Shown here in pieces: positions 4,310 through 52,282 of a stretch of 56,249 bases of DNA. The stretch's first letter is position 1, and each line of letters starts with the position of its first letter. This DNA is from Candidatus Kaiserbacteria bacterium (GTDB lineage Bacteria; Patescibacteriota; Minisyncoccia; Phycocordibacterales; UBA2100). The stretch is taken from positions 1 to 56,249 of the forward strand of contig JACPLC010000009.1 in assembly GCA_016186695.1 (NCBI GenBank), read 5' to 3'. The notes beneath the pieces are model-generated. The model saw only the letters and a program-made list of their open reading frames with translations, had not been told where the DNA came from and made no database searches. Made by a program: the position numbers and the translations under genes.

Positions 4310-5710
4310 ATGGCCAAAAAAGGCTTTAAAGTTGTCAAGTTCGGCGGTACCTCGATGGGCTCCAAGGAAGCGATCGAACGGGTGATCTCCATTGTCAGCA
4401 AGCCGCAAAAGCCCGCCCGACCGAACGGTCGTTCGGGCGGGGATGCGCGCATTGTCGCTGTTGTCGTTTCCGCGATGAGCGGTGTTACCGATCAGCTGAT
4501 CAAGATTGCCAGCGTTGCATCGCATAAGGATCCATCGTACAAAAAACTGCTCACAAGGCTCGAGCGGCGTCACCTTGAGACGCTGAACAAGCTCGTAAAC
4601 GCAAAAAATCGCGCGCACTCCCAAGAAGTCATTCACCGGACGTTCCGCTACCTCAATGAAGCGGTGACGGGTGTTGCACTCATGCGTGATCTTTCACCAC
4701 AAACGTTTGATTACGTCGTGAGCTATGGTGAACGTCTTTCTGCACATCTGCTCACAGAAGTGTTGAACGACAGGGGCATTGCATGTGAATATTTGAACGC
4801 ACGCAAAGTGATAACGACGGACGATCATTTCGGCGCGGCGTTTGTGGATTTCAAAACGACGAATGTAAATATCAAAAAGTATTTTCGCGCTCACAGGAAA
4901 CTCCAAATCGTGACGGGCTACATCGGTGCAACGCGCGACAAGAAAACGACGACGCTTGGACGCGGCGGGAGCGATTACAGCGCGGCAATTTTTGGTGCTG
5001 CGCTCGGAGCGAAGGCCATAGAAATTTGGACGGATGTTTCGGGCGTGTATACCGCCGATCCGCGGTTGGTGAAAGGTGCCAAGGTCGTACCGGAGCTTGC
5101 GTTCGAAGAAGCGGGGGAGCTCGCCTACTTTGGCGCGAAGGTCTTGCATCCAAAAACCATTTTGCCGGCGATGCGCGAGAAGATCCCCGTGCGCGTGTTG
5201 AATACGTTCAGACCTTCCGACAAGGGGACAACGATCGTCGCGGGCTTCGCCGAGCGCCGAAGCCGTAGCCACACGGTGGAGGCGCTTACGTTCAAGCGTC
5301 CTGTAATCGTTATCCACCTGCATTCTCCCGAATTTTTCGACTCGAACGGCTTGATGGCAGGGATATTTGAAGTATTCGACCGCTATCGCACGAGCATCGA
5401 CATCGTGGCGACGTCTGTCGCGGGCGTTTCTCTCACCATCGACGACGACAAGCATCTTCTCGAGATCGTGCGGGGTCTCAAAAAGTATGGAGATGTCAGC
5501 GTCGAGTGGAGGAAAGCTATTGTGTGTGCCGTGGGAGGAAGTGTGAATGCCGCGGGTGTCGCGGGCAAAATGTTCACGGTGCTCGGGAAGCGCGGGATTC
5601 CTGTCGAGCTTATTTCGCAAGCTGCCTCAGGCGTCTCGATCACATTTGTCGTTCGCGAACGCGACGCCGAAAAGGCGCTCAAAGTTCTGCACCGCGAGTA
5701 CATACGGTGA
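4310..5710 (+). CDS. lysC: Aspartate kinase
   Basis: VVKFGGTSMGS signature, amino-acid-kinase fold motifs and C-terminal ACT-like region. Promoter TTGACA (4268-4273)-17-TACTCT upstream. Confidence 0.9.
   Translation: MAKKGFKVVKFGGTSMGSKEAIERVISIVSKPQKPARPNGRSGGDARIVAVVVSAMSGVTDQLIKIASVASHKDPSYKKLLTRLERRHLETLNKLVNAKNRAHSQEVIHRTFRYLNEAVTGVALMRDLSPQTFDYVVSYGERLSAHLLTEVLNDRGIACEYLNARKVITTDDHFGAAFVDFKTTNVNIKKYFRAHRKLQIVTGYIGATRDKKTTTLGRGGSDYSAAIFGAALGAKAIEIWTDVSGVYTADPRLVKGAKVVPELAFEEAGELAYFGAKVLHPKTILPAMREKIPVRVLNTFRPSDKGTTIVAGFAERRSRSHTVEALTFKRPVIVIHLHSPEFFDSNGLMAGIFEVFDRYRTSIDIVATSVAGVSLTIDDDKHLLEIVRGLKKYGDVSVEWRKAIVCAVGGSVNAAGVAGKMFTVLGKRGIPVELISQAASGVSITFVVRERDAEKALKVLHREYIR
4412..4442. repeat. 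Family-A hairpin repeat inserted in frame in lysC
   Basis: cccgcccgaccgaacggtcgttcgggcgggg encodes ...PARPNGRSGG... at a position where aspartokinases run straight into the VVVSAM motif. Confidence 0.75.
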
Positions 5711-7713: not shown

Positions 7714-7799
7714 ATCTTCGATCCGGCGGTCACCTTGTTGCGATACACGTCTGACCTTTTCCACCATTTCTACATCATAGCTCAATGAACCGAGGGGGG

Positions 7800-7927
7800 T
7801 ATAATGCCCACGCTATGCCTGAACACACGAAATGGCATCACACTAGTCGTGTAGTACGTAGATATTCTGCCGTAGTTCAGAGACATCCGATAATAGTTAT
7901 CAAATCGAATATGGCATTGCAGAGACA
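7800..7927 (+). promoter_or_regulatory. TATAAT box plus structured leader of zwf-gnd
   Basis: TATAAT at 7800-7805. 7824-7838 is the perfect reverse complement of 7928-7942. Hairpin 7911-7919/7926-7934. Confidence 0.45.
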
Positions 7928-17871: not shown

Positions 17872-17887
17872 AACACCTTATATGCTT

Positions 17888-17907
17888 ATTCGCGCGAATT
17901 AGAATAT
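17888..17907. repeat. Intergenic copy of the AATTCGCGCGAATTAGAATAT palindromic repeat
   Basis: The 20-mer attcgcgcgaattagaatat is identical to 48025-48044 inside uvrC. Confidence 0.7.
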
Positions 17908-17946
17908 GGTTATTAGCATCGTTGTGCACAGGTTTGTTGCAGAGGC

Positions 17947-35497: not shown

Positions 35498-35591
35498 ATA
35501 CGTGCGGTATCTAGTACAGTACTCCGATGGCAGGTTTCCCCGGTACCACAAGTCCTCCGGACTTGGCTACGGGGCAGGCAAACTTTTGTCT

Positions 35592-37658
35592 ATGAAATCT
35601 TCGAACATATTTACATTGAAGAGCGATTATCGACCCGCTGGAGATCAGCCGAAGGCTATTGAGGCGCTTGTAGACGGGCTTGAGAAAGGGAAGCGAGATC
35701 AGACGCTTCTCGGTGTTACCGGCTCGGGAAAGACCTTTACGGTGGCCAACGTCATCCAAAAATGGCAGAAACCGACGCTTGTCATCGCGCACAACAAGAC
35801 GCTCGCGGCACAGCTTGCCGCGGAGTATCGCGAATTCTTTCCCAAGAATGCAGTCCACTACTTCGTTTCCTATTACGACTTCTACCAGCCGGAAGCGTAC
35901 GTACCTATTACCGATACCTATATCGAGAAAGAGGCACAGATCAACGAGGACATCGAGCGCCTCCGGCATGCGGCGACGCAGGCACTCCTGACGCGTAGTG
36001 ATGTCATCATCGTCGCTTCGGTTTCTTGCATCTACGGCCTCGGCTCGCCGGTAGAATACGAAAAGGTCAATCTCAAGCTCAGAAAGGGCGAGGCAATGAC
36101 GCGCGCGACCTTGACGCGCAAACTCATCTCTATTTATTTCGAACGCACAGCAGGCGACCTTTCGCCGGGTACCTTCCGCGCGCTCGGGAGCCGCGTCGAG
36201 TTGATGCCCGCGAGCGAGCGGGTCATTTACCGGCTCGACCTCACCGGCGGGAAGATCGCAAAGATGGAGGAGATCGATGCAACGACGAGGGAGATTGGCG
36301 CGAAGCATGATGCGATTTTCGTATTTCCTGCGCGGCAGTACGTGACACCGAAAGATGTGCAGGACGCCGCGCTTGCCGACATAGAGTTGGAGCTTGCCGA
36401 GCGACTCAAGATACTGAACGCCGCAGGGAAAATCCTCGAGGCAGAGCGCTTGAAACGACGCACGCGGCAGGACATTGCGATGATCCGCGAGTTCGGTTTT
36501 TGTAGCGGGATCGAGAACTACTCGCGACACTTCGACCGCCGAAAGCCCGGCGAGCCGCCCTACACGCTTTTGGATTATTTTCCACACGACAAAGAGGGGA
36601 AGCCCGAATTTCTCACCGTTATCGATGAATCGCATGTGACCGTCCCGCAGATCGGCGGCATGTACGCGGGCGATCGGTCGCGCAAGCAGACGCTCGTCGA
36701 GCACGGTTTCAGGCTTCCGAGTGCCGTCGACAATCGCCCGCTCATGTTTGAAGAATTCGAAAAGCGGATAGGGCAGATCATGTACACGTCGGCGACCCCC
36801 GCGGCGTACGAACTTTCGCGAAGCGGTACGCCTGTGGAGCAGGTCATCAGACCAACCGGACTCGTCGATCCCGAGATCATCGTTCGCCCGATTGTCAGTG
36901 AAAAGGGGGAGATCGTATCTCCCGATATATCGGGAGATACGATCTCCCGACATCCCTATCCGGGGCAGGTAAAAGATTTCATTGCCGAGGCCGAGGCAGT
37001 GACAAAGCGCGGCGCACGTTCGATGGTCACGGTGCTAACGAAGAAGATGGCAGAAGACCTGACGCAGTTTCTCGTGGAGCGCGGCGTAAAGGCCCGCTAC
37101 GTGCATAGCGATGTGAAGACCATCGAGCGTATCGAGATTCTGCGAGATTTCCGGAAAGGCGTGTTCGATGTGCTGGTCGGCGTCAATCTCCTGCGAGAAG
37201 GGCTCGATCTGCCGGAAGTGGAACTCGTCGGCATACTGGACGCCGACAAAGAGGGATTCCTGCGCAGCGAAACATCGCTCATCCAAACCATCGGCCGCGC
37301 GGCGAGGAACGTGCGCGGCCGCGTGATTCTCTACGCCGACACCTCGACTGGCTCGATGGAGCGTGCGATAGGCGAGACGAACCGCCGGCGCGAGATTCAG
37401 ATCACCTACAACAAGGCGCACAAGATCACGCCAAAAACCATCGAGAAACGCATCCACGACATCGTGGGCGACATCGAACGCTCGCGGAGACGCGCGATAC
37501 AGGAGCTCACGCGGATGGACACGCATGCGTTCGCCGGCGATACGGAGAAATTGGTCAAAGAAAAGCGCAGGCAGATGCATGAGGCTGCCGACCGTCTCGA
37601 CTTCGAGACAGCGGCTCTTATTCGTGATGAAATTAGAGCACTGGAGCAGGCCAAGTAG
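35592..37658 (+). CDS. uvrB: Excinuclease ABC subunit B
   Basis: GDQPKAIEAL, GVTGSGKTFT, DESH, helicase motifs, C-terminal UVR domain (LDFETAALIRDEIRALE). Confidence 0.93.
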   Translation: MKSSNIFTLKSDYRPAGDQPKAIEALVDGLEKGKRDQTLLGVTGSGKTFTVANVIQKWQKPTLVIAHNKTLAAQLAAEYREFFPKNAVHYFVSYYDFYQPEAYVPITDTYIEKEAQINEDIERLRHAATQALLTRSDVIIVASVSCIYGLGSPVEYEKVNLKLRKGEAMTRATLTRKLISIYFERTAGDLSPGTFRALGSRVELMPASERVIYRLDLTGGKIAKMEEIDATTREIGAKHDAIFVFPARQYVTPKDVQDAALADIELELAERLKILNAAGKILEAERLKRRTRQDIAMIREFGFCSGIENYSRHFDRRKPGEPPYTLLDYFPHDKEGKPEFLTVIDESHVTVPQIGGMYAGDRSRKQTLVEHGFRLPSAVDNRPLMFEEFEKRIGQIMYTSATPAAYELSRSGTPVEQVIRPTGLVDPEIIVRPIVSEKGEIVSPDISGDTISRHPYPGQVKDFIAEAEAVTKRGARSMVTVLTKKMAEDLTQFLVERGVKARYVHSDVKTIERIEILRDFRKGVFDVLVGVNLLREGLDLPEVELVGILDADKEGFLRSETSLIQTIGRAARNVRGRVILYADTSTGSMERAIGETNRRREIQITYNKAHKITPKTIEKRIHDIVGDIERSRRRAIQELTRMDTHAFAGDTEKLVKEKRRQMHEAADRLDFETAALIRDEIRALEQAK
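36907..36948. repeat. 42-bp perfect palindrome inserted in frame in uvrB
   Basis: gggagatcgtatctcccgata|tatcgggagatacgatctccc encodes ...GEIVSPDISGDTISR... between the conserved DPEI.VRP and the downstream domain. Confidence 0.85.
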
Positions 37659-39587: not shown

Positions 39588-39689
39588 TGCTCGCAAAAAG
39601 TGAAAGAGGCTGCACGTCGCGGCCTCTTGTTGTTTATGATAAACTTACCGCACCTACCCCCTGTCGCAAATCAGGGGCTAGTTTGCGTT

Positions 39690-42461
39690 ATGACACCAGC
39701 AAAAAAACACGACAGCGACCCCGACGCTTCGGTCGGGGCCGGCAAAATCGTGGTGAAGGGTGCCCGCACCCATAATTTGAAAAACGTAACGGTTGAGATA
39801 CCGCGCAATAAGATGGTGGTGTTCACGGGCTTGTCCGGAAGCGGGAAGTCGTCTTTGGCATTCGATACGATCTTCGCCGAAGGTCAGCGCAAATACGTCG
39901 AGTCGCTTTCGGCGTACGCGCGGCAGTTTTTGCGCCAGATGCAAAAGCCTGATGTCGACGAGATCTCCGGCCTTTCTCCGGCCATTTCGATAGACCAGAA
40001 GAGCCGCTCCAACAACCCCCGCTCGACGGTGGCGACTATCACGGAGATTTACGACTACCTGCGTGTGCTCTATGCGCGTATCGGCCATCCGCACTGCCCG
40101 ACCTGTGGCAGGGAAGTGAGGAAACTCTCGAACGAAGAAATCCTTGAAACGGTGCTTGGTATTGTCGAAATCGCCCGAAAACACACAGCGCCAAAAGGCA
40201 AGCTCACAAAAGGCGTTTCGAGCGCAAAGGTCCGCATCAGCGCCCCGATGGTTGTCGGCCGAAAAGGCGAGTACTACCAACTCCTCTACGACATGCTTAA
40301 CAAAGGCTTCGAGAAAGCTATTGTGGACGGACAGGAAAAGTCGCTCCGCGAGCGCATCGAGCTCAAGAAGCACTTTAAGCACGACATTGATATCGTGGTC
40401 GATGAGATCTTTGTCTCGGAGTTTGCCGACGACCCGAAGGGGGCGCGCGAGCGTGCAAGCGAAGCAATAGAGCGCGCACTGCACGAATCGGAGGGCCTCG
40501 TGCGCATTACCGATGCGGCAGGAGAATCGCACATTGTTTCTGCGAAATTCATGTGTGCATACGACGGTTTTTCGTTTCCCGAGATAGAACCCCGCCTCTT
40601 TTCATTTAATTCCCCCTACGGAGCGTGTCCTGAGTGCAAAGGTTTAGGCACCAAATACTTCTTTGGCGACGAACCGTGCGATGTATGCAGAGGCGCGCGG
40701 CTTCGTCCCGAATCGCTCAACGTTTTTCTCGGCCCCTCCTCCGCCCCGCCTTCGCGTAAAGCTACGGACGGGCGCGGCAAGGCTACGGAGGGCAAGGCGG
40801 TTACGGGGATGGACATTGTAAAACTCTCCTCGCTCTCCATCGAGCATGCAATGGATTTTTTCAAAAAGCTGAAGCTCTCGAAGAAAGACGAAGAGATTTC
40901 GCGGGTGGTTATCAAAGAGATCACGAGCCGCCTGCAGTTCATGCTCAATGTCGGCATCGAGTACCTCACGCTCGATCGGAAGGCAAATACACTCTCCGGC
41001 GGCGAAGCGCAACGCATCAGACTTGCTTCCCAGCTCGGGAGCGGGCTTGTGGGCGCGCTCTACGTCTTGGACGAACCGACGATAGGGCTTCACCAGCGCG
41101 ACAACGACAAGCTCATCGAGACGCTGAAACACCTGCGCGATTTGGGGAACACAGTTCTCGTGGTAGAGCACGACGAAGATACGATTTTTGCCTCCGACTA
41201 CATCATCGATCTAGGGGTAGGAGCCGGAATTCACGGCGGTAGTATCGTTGCCTCGGGCTGGCTCGATCCTCTGCTTACGGCAAAAACCCTGAAGGAAATC
41301 CGCCAAAGGGCGGATTCCTACGGGGCAGGCGAACAAATCTCTCGGACGTTGCAGTACTTGAGAGGAGAATTGAAGATCGAGATGCCGGAGAAACGGCGCG
41401 CGGCAGACCGCGGCAAAATAAAGATCCGCGGCGCATCGAAGTTCAATCTCAACAAAATGAACGTGGACGTTCCGCTCGTAAAACTGGTCTGCGTCACCGG
41501 CGTATCCGGCTCGGGCAAATCCACCTTTCTCTACGAAATCCTCCATCGCAATTTACTGGCACGCTTCGATAAGCGCTATCGGAGCGCGAAGACCTACAAT
41601 GCTGCCGAGTTTTCGGGAACGGAATATCTTAGCCGTTCCATCCTTATCGACCAGTCGCCGATAGGCCGCACTCCGCGCTCGAATCCGGCGACCTACACTG
41701 GCGCATGGACGCACATCCGAGACATGTTTGCGATGAGTGAGGAGGCGCGTGCGCGCGGCTGGGGGCCGGGGCGCTTTTCTTTCAATGTGAAAGGCGGCCG
41801 ATGCGAGGCGTGTCAGGGGAACGGGCTCGTCGCTGTCGAGATGCACTTTTTGCCGACCGTCTATGTGACGTGCGACGTATGCAACGGCAAGCGATTTATG
41901 AAAGAGACATTGGAGGTGAAGATTAAAGGAAATACAAGAACCCGCCCGAACGACCGGTCGTCCGGTCGGGCGGGAAAGAGCATTCACGACATTCTCTCGA
42001 TGACGGTCGAGGAAGCGGGAAAATTTTTCGAGGACATTCCGGCAATCGCAGATCGTTTACAGACGCTCTCGGACGTCGGTCTTGATTACCTCGAGCTCGG
42101 CCAGAGCGCGACGACGCTCTCCGGCGGCGAGGCACAGCGCGTTAAAATTGCTTCAGAACTCTATCGGCCGCTCACGACGAAGACCATCTACCTTCTCGAC
42201 GAGCCGACCGTGGGTCTCCACTACGATGACGTCGCAAAACTCATCCAGATCCTGCAGAAGCTCGTCGAGCGCGGAAACACAGTCGTCGTGATTGAGCACA
42301 ACCTTGATGTTTTAAAGTGCGCAGATTACATCATCGACCTCGGCCCCGAGGGCGGCGCCGGCGGCGGCACAGTTGTCGCCAAAGGCACACCGGAGGAAGT
42401 CTCAAAAACCGACAGCTCGCACACGGGGTACTACCTCAAGCGTGTTCTTAAGAAGCGCTAA
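39690..42461 (+). CDS. uvrA: Excinuclease ABC subunit A
   Basis: GARTHNLKN, GLSGSGKSSLAFDTI, two ABC modules, zinc-finger cysteines (CPTCG, CPECKG, CEACQGNG...CDVCNG), LSGGEAQR x2. Confidence 0.93.
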   Translation: MTPAKKHDSDPDASVGAGKIVVKGARTHNLKNVTVEIPRNKMVVFTGLSGSGKSSLAFDTIFAEGQRKYVESLSAYARQFLRQMQKPDVDEISGLSPAISIDQKSRSNNPRSTVATITEIYDYLRVLYARIGHPHCPTCGREVRKLSNEEILETVLGIVEIARKHTAPKGKLTKGVSSAKVRISAPMVVGRKGEYYQLLYDMLNKGFEKAIVDGQEKSLRERIELKKHFKHDIDIVVDEIFVSEFADDPKGARERASEAIERALHESEGLVRITDAAGESHIVSAKFMCAYDGFSFPEIEPRLFSFNSPYGACPECKGLGTKYFFGDEPCDVCRGARLRPESLNVFLGPSSAPPSRKATDGRGKATEGKAVTGMDIVKLSSLSIEHAMDFFKKLKLSKKDEEISRVVIKEITSRLQFMLNVGIEYLTLDRKANTLSGGEAQRIRLASQLGSGLVGALYVLDEPTIGLHQRDNDKLIETLKHLRDLGNTVLVVEHDEDTIFASDYIIDLGVGAGIHGGSIVASGWLDPLLTAKTLKEIRQRADSYGAGEQISRTLQYLRGELKIEMPEKRRAADRGKIKIRGASKFNLNKMNVDVPLVKLVCVTGVSGSGKSTFLYEILHRNLLARFDKRYRSAKTYNAAEFSGTEYLSRSILIDQSPIGRTPRSNPATYTGAWTHIRDMFAMSEEARARGWGPGRFSFNVKGGRCEACQGNGLVAVEMHFLPTVYVTCDVCNGKRFMKETLEVKIKGNTRTRPNDRSSGRAGKSIHDILSMTVEEAGKFFEDIPAIADRLQTLSDVGLDYLELGQSATTLSGGEAQRVKIASELYRPLTTKTIYLLDEPTVGLHYDDVAKLIQILQKLVERGNTVVVIEHNLDVLKCADYIIDLGPEGGAGGGTVVAKGTPEEVSKTDSSHTGYYLKRVLKKR
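40733..40800. repeat. Family-B repeat inserted in frame in uvrA
   Basis: cccctcctccgccccgccttcgcgtaaagctacggacgggcgcggcaaggctacggagggcaaggcgg encodes PSSAPPSRKATDGRGKATEGKA. Confidence 0.75.
41941..41974. repeat. Family-A hairpin repeat (inverted orientation) inserted in frame in uvrA
   Basis: cccgcccgaacgaccggtcgtccggtcgggcggg is the reverse complement of the uvrC/tRNA copy minus 2 nt. It encodes TRPNDRSSGRAG between the conserved ...LEVKIKG and KSI.D.L.MTVEEA. Confidence 0.8.
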
Positions 42462-47354: not shown

Positions 47355-47462
47355 ATACGAGTGTTCAGGATTTCATTCCAGACATACTGTGCGGCTCTTT
47401 GACATTGGCGTCAACTATTGAGATATGAACAACAACTTTGCGTCTTGTGTATACTCTCCGTC

Positions 47463-48785
47463 ATGATTCGAAGAGAACTTAAAAAATACAGGTTGCCGGA
47501 TGGGCCGGGAGTATACCTCTTCAAAAAAGGGCGGAAAATCCTGTATATAGGCAAGGCAGCATCTCTCCGTGACAGAGTGCGAAGCTACTTTTCTGCGGAT
47601 CTCGTGAATGGTCGAGGACAGGCCATTGTTGGTATGGTAGATGATGCCACGTCTGTTTCCTACCAAAAAACGGATTCTGTCTTGGAAGCACTTCTCCTCG
47701 AAGCGAGTCTTATAAAGCGTCATCAACCTCCTTTCAATATCGAGCAGAAAGACAACAAAAGCTGGAACTACGTTGTCATCACGAAGGAACCCGCCCGACC
47801 GGACGACTCCGGTCGTTCGGGCGGGGCTTTTCCGCGGGTTCTCATTGTTCGCGGTCGCGAACTGTATCAGGGGTGGGACAAGGCTGATATCAAACACCTC
47901 TTCGGACCGTTCCCGCACGGCGGGCAGTTGCGTGATGCAATGAAAATGGTCCGCCGGATATTTCCATTTCGCGACAGATGCACACCATGCGACGGGCAAC
48001 TTCGTCGAACAACACCACATTCTAATTCGCGCGAATTAGAATATAAGGATGGGAAAGTTCGGGAATGCAAACCGTGTTTTAATCGGCAGATTGGTTTGTG
48101 TCCCGGCGTGTGCTCGGGCGAAATGACAAAAGAAAAATACGCACAGACGATTCGCAGCATCCGCGAGCTCTTCTCAGGTAATTTCAAAGGCTTGAAGCGC
48201 CGGCTTGCGCGCGAAATGAAGGAGGCTGTAAAGCGCGAGGACTTTGAGGAGGCGGAGAAACTGCGCAGGCAGATCTCTGCGCTTGAACACGTGCGCGATG
48301 TCTCGCTCATTAAGAATGAAAAGCTTGTTTCTGCCGGTGGTGGAACGCGCATCGAAGCGTTTGACATCGCACACACTGCAGGGAAGGAGACTGTCGGCGT
48401 GATGACCGTCCTCGACAACGGCGAGCCATACAAAGCAGCGTACAGAAAGTTCAACGTCCGAACGGCAACGAACGATGATATTGCCGCACTGAAAGAAGTT
48501 TTGTCGCGCCGCCTGAATCATTCCGAGTGGCCTCTGCCGCGTGTTTTCGTTGTCGACGGCGGCAAGGCGCAACTGCGGGCCGCGGGCATTGTGCTGAAAA
48601 GCGCGGGCGTTATGATTCCTGTTGTCGGTGTCGTGAAAGACGAATTTCACCGTCCGGAACGGGTGATAGGCGATGAACGCATGATTCAGGCGCACGAACG
48701 CGATATTTTACTTGCCAACAATGAAGCCCACCGGTTTGCCATCGGATTTCACCGCGCACGCCAGCGAAAAAGTTTTGGACGGTGA
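47463..48785 (+). CDS. uvrC: Excinuclease ABC subunit C, short form lacking the C-terminal (HhH)2 domain
   Basis: GIY-YIG domain (GPGVYLFKKGRKILYIGKA...LLEASLIKRHQPPFN), UVR domain (FEEAEKLRRQISALEHV), nuclease domain ending ...NEAHRFAIGFHRARQRK. Confidence 0.88.
   Translation: MIRRELKKYRLPDGPGVYLFKKGRKILYIGKAASLRDRVRSYFSADLVNGRGQAIVGMVDDATSVSYQKTDSVLEALLLEASLIKRHQPPFNIEQKDNKSWNYVVITKEPARPDDSGRSGGAFPRVLIVRGRELYQGWDKADIKHLFGPFPHGGQLRDAMKMVRRIFPFRDRCTPCDGQLRRTTPHSNSRELEYKDGKVRECKPCFNRQIGLCPGVCSGEMTKEKYAQTIRSIRELFSGNFKGLKRRLAREMKEAVKREDFEEAEKLRRQISALEHVRDVSLIKNEKLVSAGGGTRIEAFDIAHTAGKETVGVMTVLDNGEPYKAAYRKFNVRTATNDDIAALKEVLSRRLNHSEWPLPRVFVVDGGKAQLRAAGIVLKSAGVMIPVVGVVKDEFHRPERVIGDERMIQAHERDILLANNEAHRFAIGFHRARQRKSFGR
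47790..47825. repeat. Family-A hairpin repeat inserted in frame in uvrC
   Basis: cccgcccgaccggacgactccggtcgttcgggcggg is identical to 51900-51935. It encodes PARPDDSGRSGG between the conserved ITKE and FPRV. Confidence 0.85.
48019..48042. repeat. 24-bp perfect palindrome inserted in frame in uvrC
   Basis: attctaattcgc|gcgaattagaat encodes HSNSRELE. Its 20-mer core recurs at 17888-17907. Confidence 0.8.
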
Positions 48786-51879: not shown

Positions 51880-51955
51880 GGGCCAGTAGTTCAGTGGTAC
51901 CCGCCCGACCGGACGACTCCGGTCGTTCGGGCGGGGAGCGTCTCATTTGCAATGT
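51880..51955 (+). pseudogene. 5'-half relic of a tRNA-Ala(UGC)-like gene, D-loop disrupted by a family-A repeat
   Basis: GGGCCAGTAGTTCAGTGGTA[36-nt repeat]GAGCGTCTCATTTGCAATGT aligns with positions 1-41 of the intact tRNA-Ala downstream. No T-arm or 3' acceptor follows. Confidence 0.7.
51900..51935. repeat. Family-A hairpin repeat inside the tRNA relic
   Basis: 36/36 identical to 47790-47825. Confidence 0.85.
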
Positions 51956-52198
51956 ATGCGATACGTTGTCTATGTTCTGAGAGACTCAGCTGGCCATCTG
52001 TATAAAGGGATGACGCGAGATTTACCAAATCGCTTGAAAGAGCATCGGAAGGGTACAACGCGAACTACTTCTCGAATGAAGGATCTGTCTGTTGCGTATA
52101 CCGAAGAGTTTGATACGTTTGATGCTGCAAGAAAACGAGAGCTTTACTTCAAATCAGCTGCGGGGAGACGTTTTCTTGCAAAGAAGCTGGGCCCTTAG
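51956..52198 (+). CDS. Stand-alone GIY-YIG nuclease-domain protein (80 aa)
   Basis: YVVYVLRDSAGHLYKGMTRDLPNRLKEHRKG...AARKRELYFKS. The stop overlaps nt 8-10 of the tRNA-Ala. Confidence 0.75.
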   Translation: MRYVVYVLRDSAGHLYKGMTRDLPNRLKEHRKGTTRTTSRMKDLSVAYTEEFDTFDAARKRELYFKSAAGRRFLAKKLGP

Positions 52199-52261
52199 CT
52201 TAGTTGGTAGAGCGCCACATTTGCAATGTGGAGGTCACCGGTTCGAATCCGGTAGGGTCCA
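52189..52261 (+). tRNA. tRNA-Ala (anticodon UGC)
   Basis: Hand-folded cloverleaf: acceptor GGGCCCT/AGGGTCC with G3:U70, D-arm GCTT/GAGC, anticodon arm CCACA-TTTGCAA-TGTGG, variable loop AGGTC, T-arm ACCGG-TTCGAAT-CCGGT, discriminator A. No encoded CCA. Confidence 0.9.
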
Positions 52262-52282
52262 CAAAACTGGTATCATGGTGGT

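Follow-up and report, generated by a model that had tools for sequence, protein, structure and literature searches.

The DNA studied here is a stretch of 56,249 nucleotides from an ultra-small Candidatus Kaiserbacteria bacterium (contig JACPLC010000009.1 of GenBank assembly GCA_016186695.1; hereafter the window), which contains four copies of a short GC-rich hairpin, three of them in frame in the essential genes lysC, uvrA and uvrC and one in the D-loop of a truncated tRNA-Ala gene that is followed by an open reading frame (ORF) for a stand-alone GIY-YIG nuclease. These hairpins are best explained, with good probability, as members of a family of miniature selfish palindromic DNA elements that survive only where they are harmless and that the GIY-YIG nuclease possibly mobilises. 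The element is widespread, structured and orientation-bearing, it is inserted precisely and without duplication, and it is present or absent among close relatives. Its physical association with tRNA-linked GIY-YIG cassettes is very strong. Judged from the sequences, copies appear to persist only as in-frame, stop-free inserts in protein loops or in redundant pieces of tRNA genes.

The window has about 54% GC, a single intact tRNA gene, tRNA-Ala(TGC), and one hairpin copy per 14 kb. The copies and their protein-coding host genes are:

4412..4441, + strand: hairpin copy, 30-nt variant, in frame in lysC, encoding PARPNGRSGG; sequence CCCGCCCGACCGAACGGTCGTTCGGGCGGG
41941..41974, - strand (canonical orientation): hairpin copy of 34 nt, in frame in uvrA, within a 45-nt insertion encoding NTRTRPNDRSSGRAG
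47790..47825, + strand: hairpin copy of 36 nt, in frame in uvrC, encoding PARPDDSGRSGG; sequence CCCGCCCGACCGGACGACTCCGGTCGTTCGGGCGGG
51900..51935, + strand: hairpin copy of 36 nt, between D-loop A21 and G22 of a tRNA-Ala 5' fragment; sequence CCCGCCCGACCGGACGACTCCGGTCGTTCGGGCGGG
4310..5710, + strand: lysC (aspartokinase), with Pfam AA_kinase and ACT domains and PDB matches
39600..42461, + strand: uvrA, start codon uncertain, with Pfam and PDB matches
47460..48785, + strand: uvrC, a short form without the C-terminal helix-hairpin-helix (HhH) domain, from Pfam and ortholog alignment

All four copies have perfect 9-bp termini (CCCGCCCGA...TCGGGCGGG), and folding predictions gave -23.5 to -27.6 kcal/mol for each of them (z = -2.8 to -3.4), in agreement with a first-pass annotation of the window that had described them as GC hairpins. 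All four were found at the places named by that annotation, and the reading frames and peptides that it quoted for the genic copies were correct; for the lysC copy its start at 4412 was right, but its end at 4442 took in one extra G. As had also been claimed, the uvrC copy and the copy in the tRNA relic, which lie 4.1 kb apart, are identical at 36/36 positions (40/41 when the flanks GGWA...G are counted), and the uvrA copy is the reverse complement of this 36-mer minus 'TC'. The half-site CCCGCCCGAMCG (at most one mismatch) occurs nine times in the window versus 1.15 expected, and none of 100 shuffles reached nine. A relaxed scan of the window, allowing up to three terminal mismatches, recovered only the same four elements, all with perfect termini, and thus no further decayed copies, while shuffled sequences averaged 0.9 weak hits. 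Rfam had no match to a known RNA family at the hairpins or at the relic. A role as terminators was discarded as well: the T-runs that follow some copies are mostly Lys codons (AAA) of genes on the opposite strand, and the genic copies lack a U-tract.

The copies in lysC, uvrA and uvrC are true insertions and not ancestral residues. In lysC, the insert PARPNGRSGG corresponds to a gap of 9-10 residues in the Methanocaldococcus jannaschii aspartokinase structure 3c1m, the insert columns have an occupancy of at most 0.03 (of 111 representatives, 97-99% have nothing there), and no insert is present in the nearest representative (64% identity). The uvrA insert NTRTRPNDRSSGRAG falls in a 15-residue gap of the UvrA structures 9gxk and 3pih and, of the 120 homologs closest in sequence, most do without it; the insert recurs in one relative, where it is longer by one residue, and several other UvrA homologs carry unrelated inserts at the same loop. 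For uvrC, the 12 insert residues are absent from about 105 of the 120 closest Kaiserbacteria-like orthologs, including the nearest one (82% identity), so that an empty site reading ITKED|FPRV is replaced in the window by ITKE-PARPDDSGRSGG-AFPRV. Residues homologous to the inserts were looked for in the orthologs of all three genes and orthologs proved to lack them, which confirms the earlier statement that the hairpins lie between motifs that are contiguous in most LysC, UvrA and UvrC homologs. In uvrA, an insertion had been recognised correctly, but the hairpin is not the whole of it: the insertion measures 45 nt (41930-41975), made up of the 34-nt hairpin and 11 flanking nucleotides (AATACAAGAA before it and A after it), which restore the frame. 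An AlphaFold2 model of UvrC built on the ortholog alignment (mean predicted local distance difference test, pLDDT, of 79) places the insert between beta strands 102-107 and 126-130, in a loop of low confidence (residues 115-119 have a pLDDT below 50). The insert-spanning peptides deduced for genic copies read ...ITKEPARPDDSGRSGGAFPR... and ...SKPQKPARPNGRSGGDAR.... The UvrC of the window is short (about 440 aa) and has no C-terminal HhH; its 120 closest orthologs all measure 401-475 aa, their lengths varying greatly through inserts.

Beyond the window, an exact pattern was scanned for in one genome per species and matched at least 117 stretches. At least 91 copies, the window's four included, carry the asymmetric signature ...GACCG...CGTTC... 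or its complement. The first-pass annotation had reckoned with the repeat being absent elsewhere as evidence against its reading, and these copies settle that point in its favour; as they are spread across more than 90 independent assemblies, an assembly chimera is implausible. Among the matches listed, the asymmetric copies lie in metagenome-assembled genomes (MAGs) labelled as about 15 lineages of the candidate phyla radiation (CPR), with a local GC content of 31-60%; MAG titles include Nomura-, Uhr-, Sacchari-, Peri-, Yanofsky-, Vogel-, Brenner-, Taylor-, Doudna-, Moranii- and Sungii-bacteria, Paceibacterota, Minisyncoccia, Parcubacteria and others. The 31 symmetric hits among the matches listed come mostly from high-GC actinobacteria, are devoid of the TCGT signature described below, and have the appearance of chance palindromes or of terminators.

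The element is 28-39 nt long, mostly 30 or 36 nt, and consists of a perfect 9-bp outer stem (CCCGCCCGA/TCGGGCGGG), a 5-bp inner helix, a 4-nt loop and a 4-nt bulge. This bulge, TCGT, is the conserved asymmetry that sets the orientation of the element. As the outer stem was imposed by the search pattern, the scan holds no evidence on its conservation. The inner helix, C[C/T]G[G/A]A / T[C/T]C[G/A]G, varies in sequence with its pairing maintained: among distinct 36-mers, pair 13-20 is A-U in 13 and G-C in 11, and pair 11-22 is C-G in 21 and U-A in 3. An alternative, mutually exclusive helix (14-18 with 23-27) is likewise supported, and the core of the element may therefore switch between two folds. 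Copies that were reached independently, through the GIY-YIG protein, share these ends, and the small variations among them are CCTGCC..., a 32-nt GTACCGAACGGTAC core and a form of 50 nt.

Hairpins were also found in MAGs labelled Gammaproteobacteria (L025 and L059; 31% GC), Bacteroidota (L039, L016 and L026) and Planctomycetota (L013, L030, L055, L058, L067 and L072), and in L025, L059 and L039 the hairpin is accompanied by a GIY-YIG ORF and tRNA fragments. These carriers reflect either contaminated bins or an element that crosses phylum boundaries. Five IMG/VR contigs (L133-L137) have the asymmetric hairpin, three of them with common flanks, and may be CPR phages or misclassified CPR DNA; a phage origin of the element was dismissed, no more than these five IMG/VR contigs carrying it and the nuclease having no PHROG match. 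In the Uhrbacteria L006, L063, L066 (two copies, 3.4 kb apart) and L081, a 33-nt variant occurs in similar protein contexts (...L[D/N]-PPERTFDGRAG-SP...) and between similar DNA flanks (GGGCTG|...|TCGAG), and may lie inside a repeated protein module. In the Peribacteria L047 and L068, a hairpin sits in the spacer about 100 nt downstream of the 3' end of the 16S rRNA gene, with conserved flanks cttgcc|...|t[ac]gc.

Of the at least 91 asymmetric copies, 46 lie in long ORFs, 21 in tRNA fragments (17 in the D-loop and 4 at T-loop-like sites) and 24 elsewhere or in places that could not be classified. The ORF copies are 30, 33, 36 or 39 nt long in 45 cases, whereas only 12 of the 21 tRNA-fragment copies have lengths divisible by three and 34, 35 and 37 nt occur as well (Fisher p = 5.6e-5; p = 0.008 in the worst case, with all 5 unclassified out-of-frame copies taken as genic). 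The sole ORF copy that is not divisible by three is the 34-nt uvrA copy of the window, whose frame is restored by the extra flanking bases. This restriction of lengths indicates that genic copies are most likely translated and not removed, in which case they would encode surface loops rich in Pro, Gly, Ser and Arg. The element is stop-free in all six frames and every frame is used, the frame giving PARP..GRSGG being taken by 26 of the 46 ORF copies (p = 1e-9). Hydrophilicity of the peptide as the only cause of this bias is ruled out by the low use of the two most hydrophilic frames; the preference seems to reflect the target (a Lys|Asp-Glu boundary) together with selection on the peptide.

In canonical orientation (n = 89), the flanks show a preference for T/A at -2, A/G at -1, G/T at +1 and A at +2. 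Purines are frequent around the insertion points, most of which are placed immediately 5' of GA, the recurrent sites being GGTA|GAGC in the D-loop, GTTC|GAAT in the T-loop and Lys|Asp-Glu codon boundaries (AAR|GAN). Deleting the element in silico gave back exactly the consensus D-loop and T-loop and, for uvrC, the sequence of the empty site, which means that the target site is not duplicated. The flanks of the copies contain no conserved tetranucleotide 5' of the insertion point, and a comparison of flanks never revealed donor flank copied along with the element.

At uvrC, the same nucleotide is filled in three non-sister lineages, in forward orientation in the window and in L141/P0046 and reversed in L142/P0026, and the nearest neighbours of each have an empty site. 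A single ancestral insertion is unlikely, since the three carriers are not mutual nearest relatives; the site has either been targeted repeatedly or the core has flipped in place between its inverted arms, and such flipping could account for the two orientations. Three syntenic 21-kb regions of relatives, one of them from the complete genome CP066682.1, hold no hairpin copy at all. Around ten other uvrC orthologs have different short inserts, such as SPPAGG and SASRRTLAGG, at the hairpin site (at exactly this site in P0005, P0011, P0014, P0032, P0034, P0038, P0066, P0067 and P0103), and these may be decayed hairpin copies or represent another hairpin family.

The fourth copy of the window belongs to a cassette with the following parts:

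51881..51955, + strand: 5' relic of tRNA-Ala(TGC), covering positions 1 to about 40, as far as the anticodon loop, with the hairpin lodged inside it, from alignment to the real tRNA
51956..52198, + strand: ORF for an 80-aa stand-alone GIY-YIG nuclease of UPF0213 type (PF01541, E = 1.1e-11; PDB 1ywl, E = 6e-5)
52189..52262, + strand: intact tRNA-Ala(TGC), the functional partner of the relic (ARAGORN; Rfam RF00005, 74 bits)

Without its hairpin, the relic agrees in 34 of 41 columns with nucleotides 1-41 of the tRNA-Ala(TGC) that lies downstream, so the earlier assignment of this copy to the D-loop of a tRNA-Ala relic stands; ARAGORN and Rfam call no tRNA at 51881-51955. The nuclease consists of the catalytic domain only, its nearest solved relative is the UPF0213 protein 1ywl, PHROG gave no match and NCBIfam no name for it. 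Its catalytic residues Y6, Y16-K17-G18, R26 and E62 are invariant in 45 homologs (59-78% identity), indicating that the nuclease is under selection. In the stretch 52187-52198, the stop codon TAG of the window ORF coincides with positions 8-10 of the intact tRNA-Ala, an arrangement that recurs in L025, L029, L071, L074, L092 and L118-L125. Processing of the tRNA by RNase P would consequently strip the ORF of its stop codon, and expression of the nuclease may be coupled to tRNA processing.

The order seen at 51881-52262, that is, a 5' tRNA half with a hairpin in its D-loop, the GIY-YIG ORF and the intact tRNA, was found at nine hairpin-selected loci for several tRNA species, and other loci keep ORF remnants only (L050). 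To remove the bias of selecting by hairpin, GIY-YIG homologs were also sampled by protein alone and their contigs then inspected. Six of the seven distinct genes obtained in this way have one or two family hairpins in the relic, at varying positions (9|10, 10|11, 13|14, 21|22 and the anticodon loop). The cassette can be present or absent at one locus: it stands between ddl and tRNA-Ala in L118-L120, and L139 and L140 have plain ddl-tRNA-Ala. No ORF bracketed by half-sites was detected in the window or in the inspected loci, and of the two sides of the GIY-YIG ORF only one has a complete hairpin.

A functional tRNA with a D-loop insert or intron was rejected, because no ARAGORN tRNA spans the site after deletion of the hairpin, neither in the window nor at the other 121 copies of the genome scan. 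A metagenome scan for hairpin, GAGC and an intact T-arm returned 80 stretches, 31 of them with a recognisable hairpin, and removal of the hairpin in silico led to a complete tRNA in only 5 of the 31. A hairpin-free tRNA of the same anticodon lies within 700 nt of 23 of these 31 copies, usually directly upstream, and these 23 include all 5 complete cases, which speaks against an insert in a unique functional tRNA and suggests that hairpins persist only in redundant tRNA copies. Tandem twins were observed in L195, L181/L197, L221 and L175, where an intact tRNA is followed after 17-100 nt by the same isoacceptor with one or two D-arm hairpins, some of them with a GIY-YIG ORF upstream of the first copy. 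In L036 (about 7775-7840, minus-strand orientation), a different GC hairpin, CCCTCTGCTCGCGAGCAGAGGG, is found downstream of a more distant GIY-YIG gene, and a duplicated 10-nt piece of the tRNA-Ala 5' end (GGCCCTTAGC) flanks it; that hairpin family does show duplication.

That the element is selfish and mobile is likely. The empty orthologs, the wide recurrence and the preserved frames support the proposal of the first-pass annotation that a mobile palindromic repeat colonises essential genes in frame. How it moves is less clear-cut, and we give a little under even chances to the nuclease mobilising hairpins in trans, which we infer from their association. A minimal, structure-specific nuclease lodged beside tRNA genes would excise the 30-36-nt hairpin and re-insert it without target duplication, possibly by cutting at the base of the extruded hairpin and re-ligating the excised strand at a nick, a route that would explain the lack of duplication. 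The tRNA fragments themselves come from the recurrent cassette, in which the ORF follows a duplicate of the 5' half of a tRNA and precedes the intact tRNA. More tentatively still, hairpin and 80-aa UPF0213-type protein might form one hitherto unrecognised DNA mobility system across the whole CPR and perhaps Bacteroidota.

Several points weigh against these interpretations. Neither a transposition event nor an excision product nor a filled/empty polymorphism within a population was observed. The link to the nuclease is an association, and an element with a preference for DNA resembling the D-loop may simply accumulate in relics as neutral sinks; one of the seven protein-sampled cassettes (L130) has no hairpin, the 20-kb contig L142 has a hairpin and no GIY-YIG gene, the 80-aa protein has no DNA-binding domain, and we know of no GIY-YIG enzyme that moves DNA hairpins. 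Perfect termini in very distant lineages could instead result from selection for a host function. The length test is partly circular, since an out-of-frame copy breaks the ORF that is used to call a coding sequence, hence the worst-case p given above. Tolerance of the peptide does not by itself account for the frame bias, since the two frames of highest hydrophilicity belong to the less frequent ones and the PARP..GRSGG frame is not the most hydrophilic. Finally, taxa were assigned from MAG titles, and the labels Bacteroidota, Planctomycetota and Gammaproteobacteria were taken unverified.

The main alternative, a rather unlikely one, holds that the element is mobile and moved by another enzyme, such as a RAYT/IS200-like single-strand transposase or the host replication and repair machinery, with a preference for small stem-loops such as D- and T-arms; hairpins would then amass near GIY-YIG genes since the tRNA fragments of the cassettes are the only tRNA-like DNA in which insertion is not lethal. 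The variable positions in the relics fit independent hits better than a fixed cassette boundary, hairpins are also present in tRNA twins and in T-loop fragments that have no ORF close by (a GIY-YIG ORF lies within 700 nt in only 9 of the 31 metagenome copies), L142 has a hairpin and no such gene in 20 kb, and insertion without target duplication is typical of single-strand transposition (IS200/IS605). On the other hand, no such transposase was seen next to any copy, the conserved 5' tetranucleotide expected for IS200/IS605 or REP (repetitive extragenic palindromic) sequences is missing, and the density of one or two copies per relic of some 35 nt, seen in six of the seven cassettes, exceeds that of the window several hundred-fold. 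We consider it improbable that the copies are repair scars, in which a nuclease (GIY-YIG or other) breaks N|GA sites and the short palindrome is copied in from an existing copy by template switching or gene conversion. Such repair would yield partial and tandem tRNA duplications like those with which the hairpins are associated, it agrees with one uvrC nucleotide being hit in three lineages and with the absent target-site duplication, and yeast mitochondrial GC clusters are reported as hotspots of recombination and gene conversion (PMC8811140). Yet the inserted DNA reproduces a defined unit exactly and has sharp ends, donor flank was never co-copied and the termini are conserved between distant lineages.

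A host function, be it as an RNA structure controlling the stability of mRNAs or tRNA precursors, as a protein-binding DNA site or as a useful flexible protein loop, is very improbable. It would account for perfect termini in the four window copies and across lineages and for covariation that preserves inner-helix pairing, and a 5' GC hairpin could stabilise the GIY-YIG mRNA; against it, one genome has the element and the closest orthologs lack it, the element occurs in both orientations and all six frames, its host genes are unrelated to one another, copies lie in non-functional tRNA fragments and Rfam knows no such family. Chance palindromes or sequencing and assembly artefacts are refuted. 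Symmetric look-alikes do arise in high-GC actinobacteria, by chance or as terminators, but the excess of half-sites in the window (9 versus 1.15), the recovery of the asymmetric signature by independent projects and assemblers in at least 91 copies, at a genomic GC content of 31-60%, and the preserved reading frames contradict such an origin.

In-frame selfish palindromes are already known as a kind, and what appears unexpected here, on a provisional view, is the breadth of the family and its partner gene. Like Rickettsia palindromic elements (RPEs), the CPR element is a probably selfish palindrome in frame in unrelated, often essential genes and also in RNA genes and spacers; Ogata et al. reportedly found RPEs in RNA genes in 2000. 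RPEs are about 150 bp long, encode a conserved peptide, form ten families confined to Rickettsia and occupy in-frame, translated, fold-compatible sites (PMC10969869), whereas the CPR element has 28-39 nt, resides in Kaiserbacteria-like and other CPR hosts and is tied to tRNA fragments and a GIY-YIG gene. Its sequence is presumably unrelated, and its length alone excludes membership. The comparison with RPEs drawn in the first-pass annotation is thus apt for the in-frame palindrome as an analogy only, and membership is contradicted by length and host and presumably by sequence. GC clusters of yeast mitochondria are short GC-rich palindromes in more AT-rich genomes, are regarded as mobile and occur in frame in var1; their AG/TAG terminal repeats are read as target-site duplications, and in Neurospora mitochondria GC-rich palindromes flank tRNA genes (PMC8811140). 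The CPR element shares with them the short, optional GC-rich palindrome in frame in coding regions, and differs in lacking a duplication and in its bacterial instead of mitochondrial host. The 'byp' GC clusters of Magnusiomyces are bypassed in translation, whereas the multiple-of-three rule of the CPR element argues for translation.

As described in PMC3733652, REP sequences are imperfect palindromes of 20-40 bp that are present in many copies, oriented by their asymmetry, extragenic and headed by GTAG or CGTC. The CPR element resembles REPs and bacterial interspersed mosaic elements (BIMEs), which RAYT transposases mobilise, in size class, copy number and orientation-giving asymmetry, and it differs by its ends CCCG...CGGG, by flanks without GTAG or CGTC and by 46 of at least 91 copies inside long ORFs. 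No RAYT gene was seen next to any copy, no genome-wide search for RAYT having been made. [quoted passage not shown]

Paquin, Laforest and Lang are said to have described, in the mitochondrial atp6 gene of Allomyces, a free-standing GIY-YIG gene with a replacement gene piece and double-hairpin elements at the junction. The cassette at 51881-52262 is similar to such homing genes in combining a nuclease ORF with intact catalytic motifs, a duplicated gene part of which one copy is functional and the other a relic, hairpins at or near the junction, and presence or absence at the conserved ddl-tRNA-Ala locus. It differs in that the target is a tRNA gene in a bacterial host, the 5' half is duplicated and the UPF0213-type protein of 80 aa is a catalytic domain only, whereas I-TevI-type homing endonucleases have a separate DNA-binding domain recognising a long target. 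Insertions in CPR rRNA genes also interrupt genes for stable RNAs, and some that are not introns encode GIY-YIG proteins, many short ORF-less inserts being uncharacterised; that report concerns rRNA genes only and leaves tRNA genes, palindromes and hairpins unmentioned (PMC11270868). A description of the element or of CPR GIY-YIG/tRNA cassettes was not found in the searchable literature, outside which most subscription journals lie, and 'undescribed' is therefore provisional.

CPR (Patescibacteria) genomes are regarded as streamlined, with little mobile DNA. If our interpretation is true, no smaller in-frame selfish element would be known in bacteria, and none would have been reported from these organisms before. 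Core repair and biosynthesis proteins (UvrA, UvrC and aspartokinase) are altered and tRNA loci fragmented, which matters for annotation, orthology, CPR marker phylogeny and assembly; many GIY-YIG contigs are very short, which fits breaks of the assembly induced by repeats. Near-identical copies in distant lineages would offer a marker for gene flow among CPR bacteria. The GIY-YIG link is a testable lead to hairpin mobilisation without target duplication and to the function of the UPF0213/YhbQ family, and a joint mobility system, if real, would give a role to this widespread family of unknown function.

Other palindromes were noticed in the window. A second, unrelated palindromic repeat (...ATTCTAATTCGCGCGAATTAGAAT..., 35 nt, 91% complementary) occurs at 17876-17910 and 48014-48048, one copy being intergenic and the other in frame in uvrC (HSNSRELEYK), in a hypervariable stretch between Cys motifs where many UvrC orthologs have NSRELA, NSNELA or NSHELA; this suggests another family of in-frame palindromes. 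In addition, a perfect 42-nt palindrome (GGGAGATCGTATCTCCCGATA / TATCGGGAGATACGATCTCCC) is located at 36907-36948, inside the long ORF 35502-37658.

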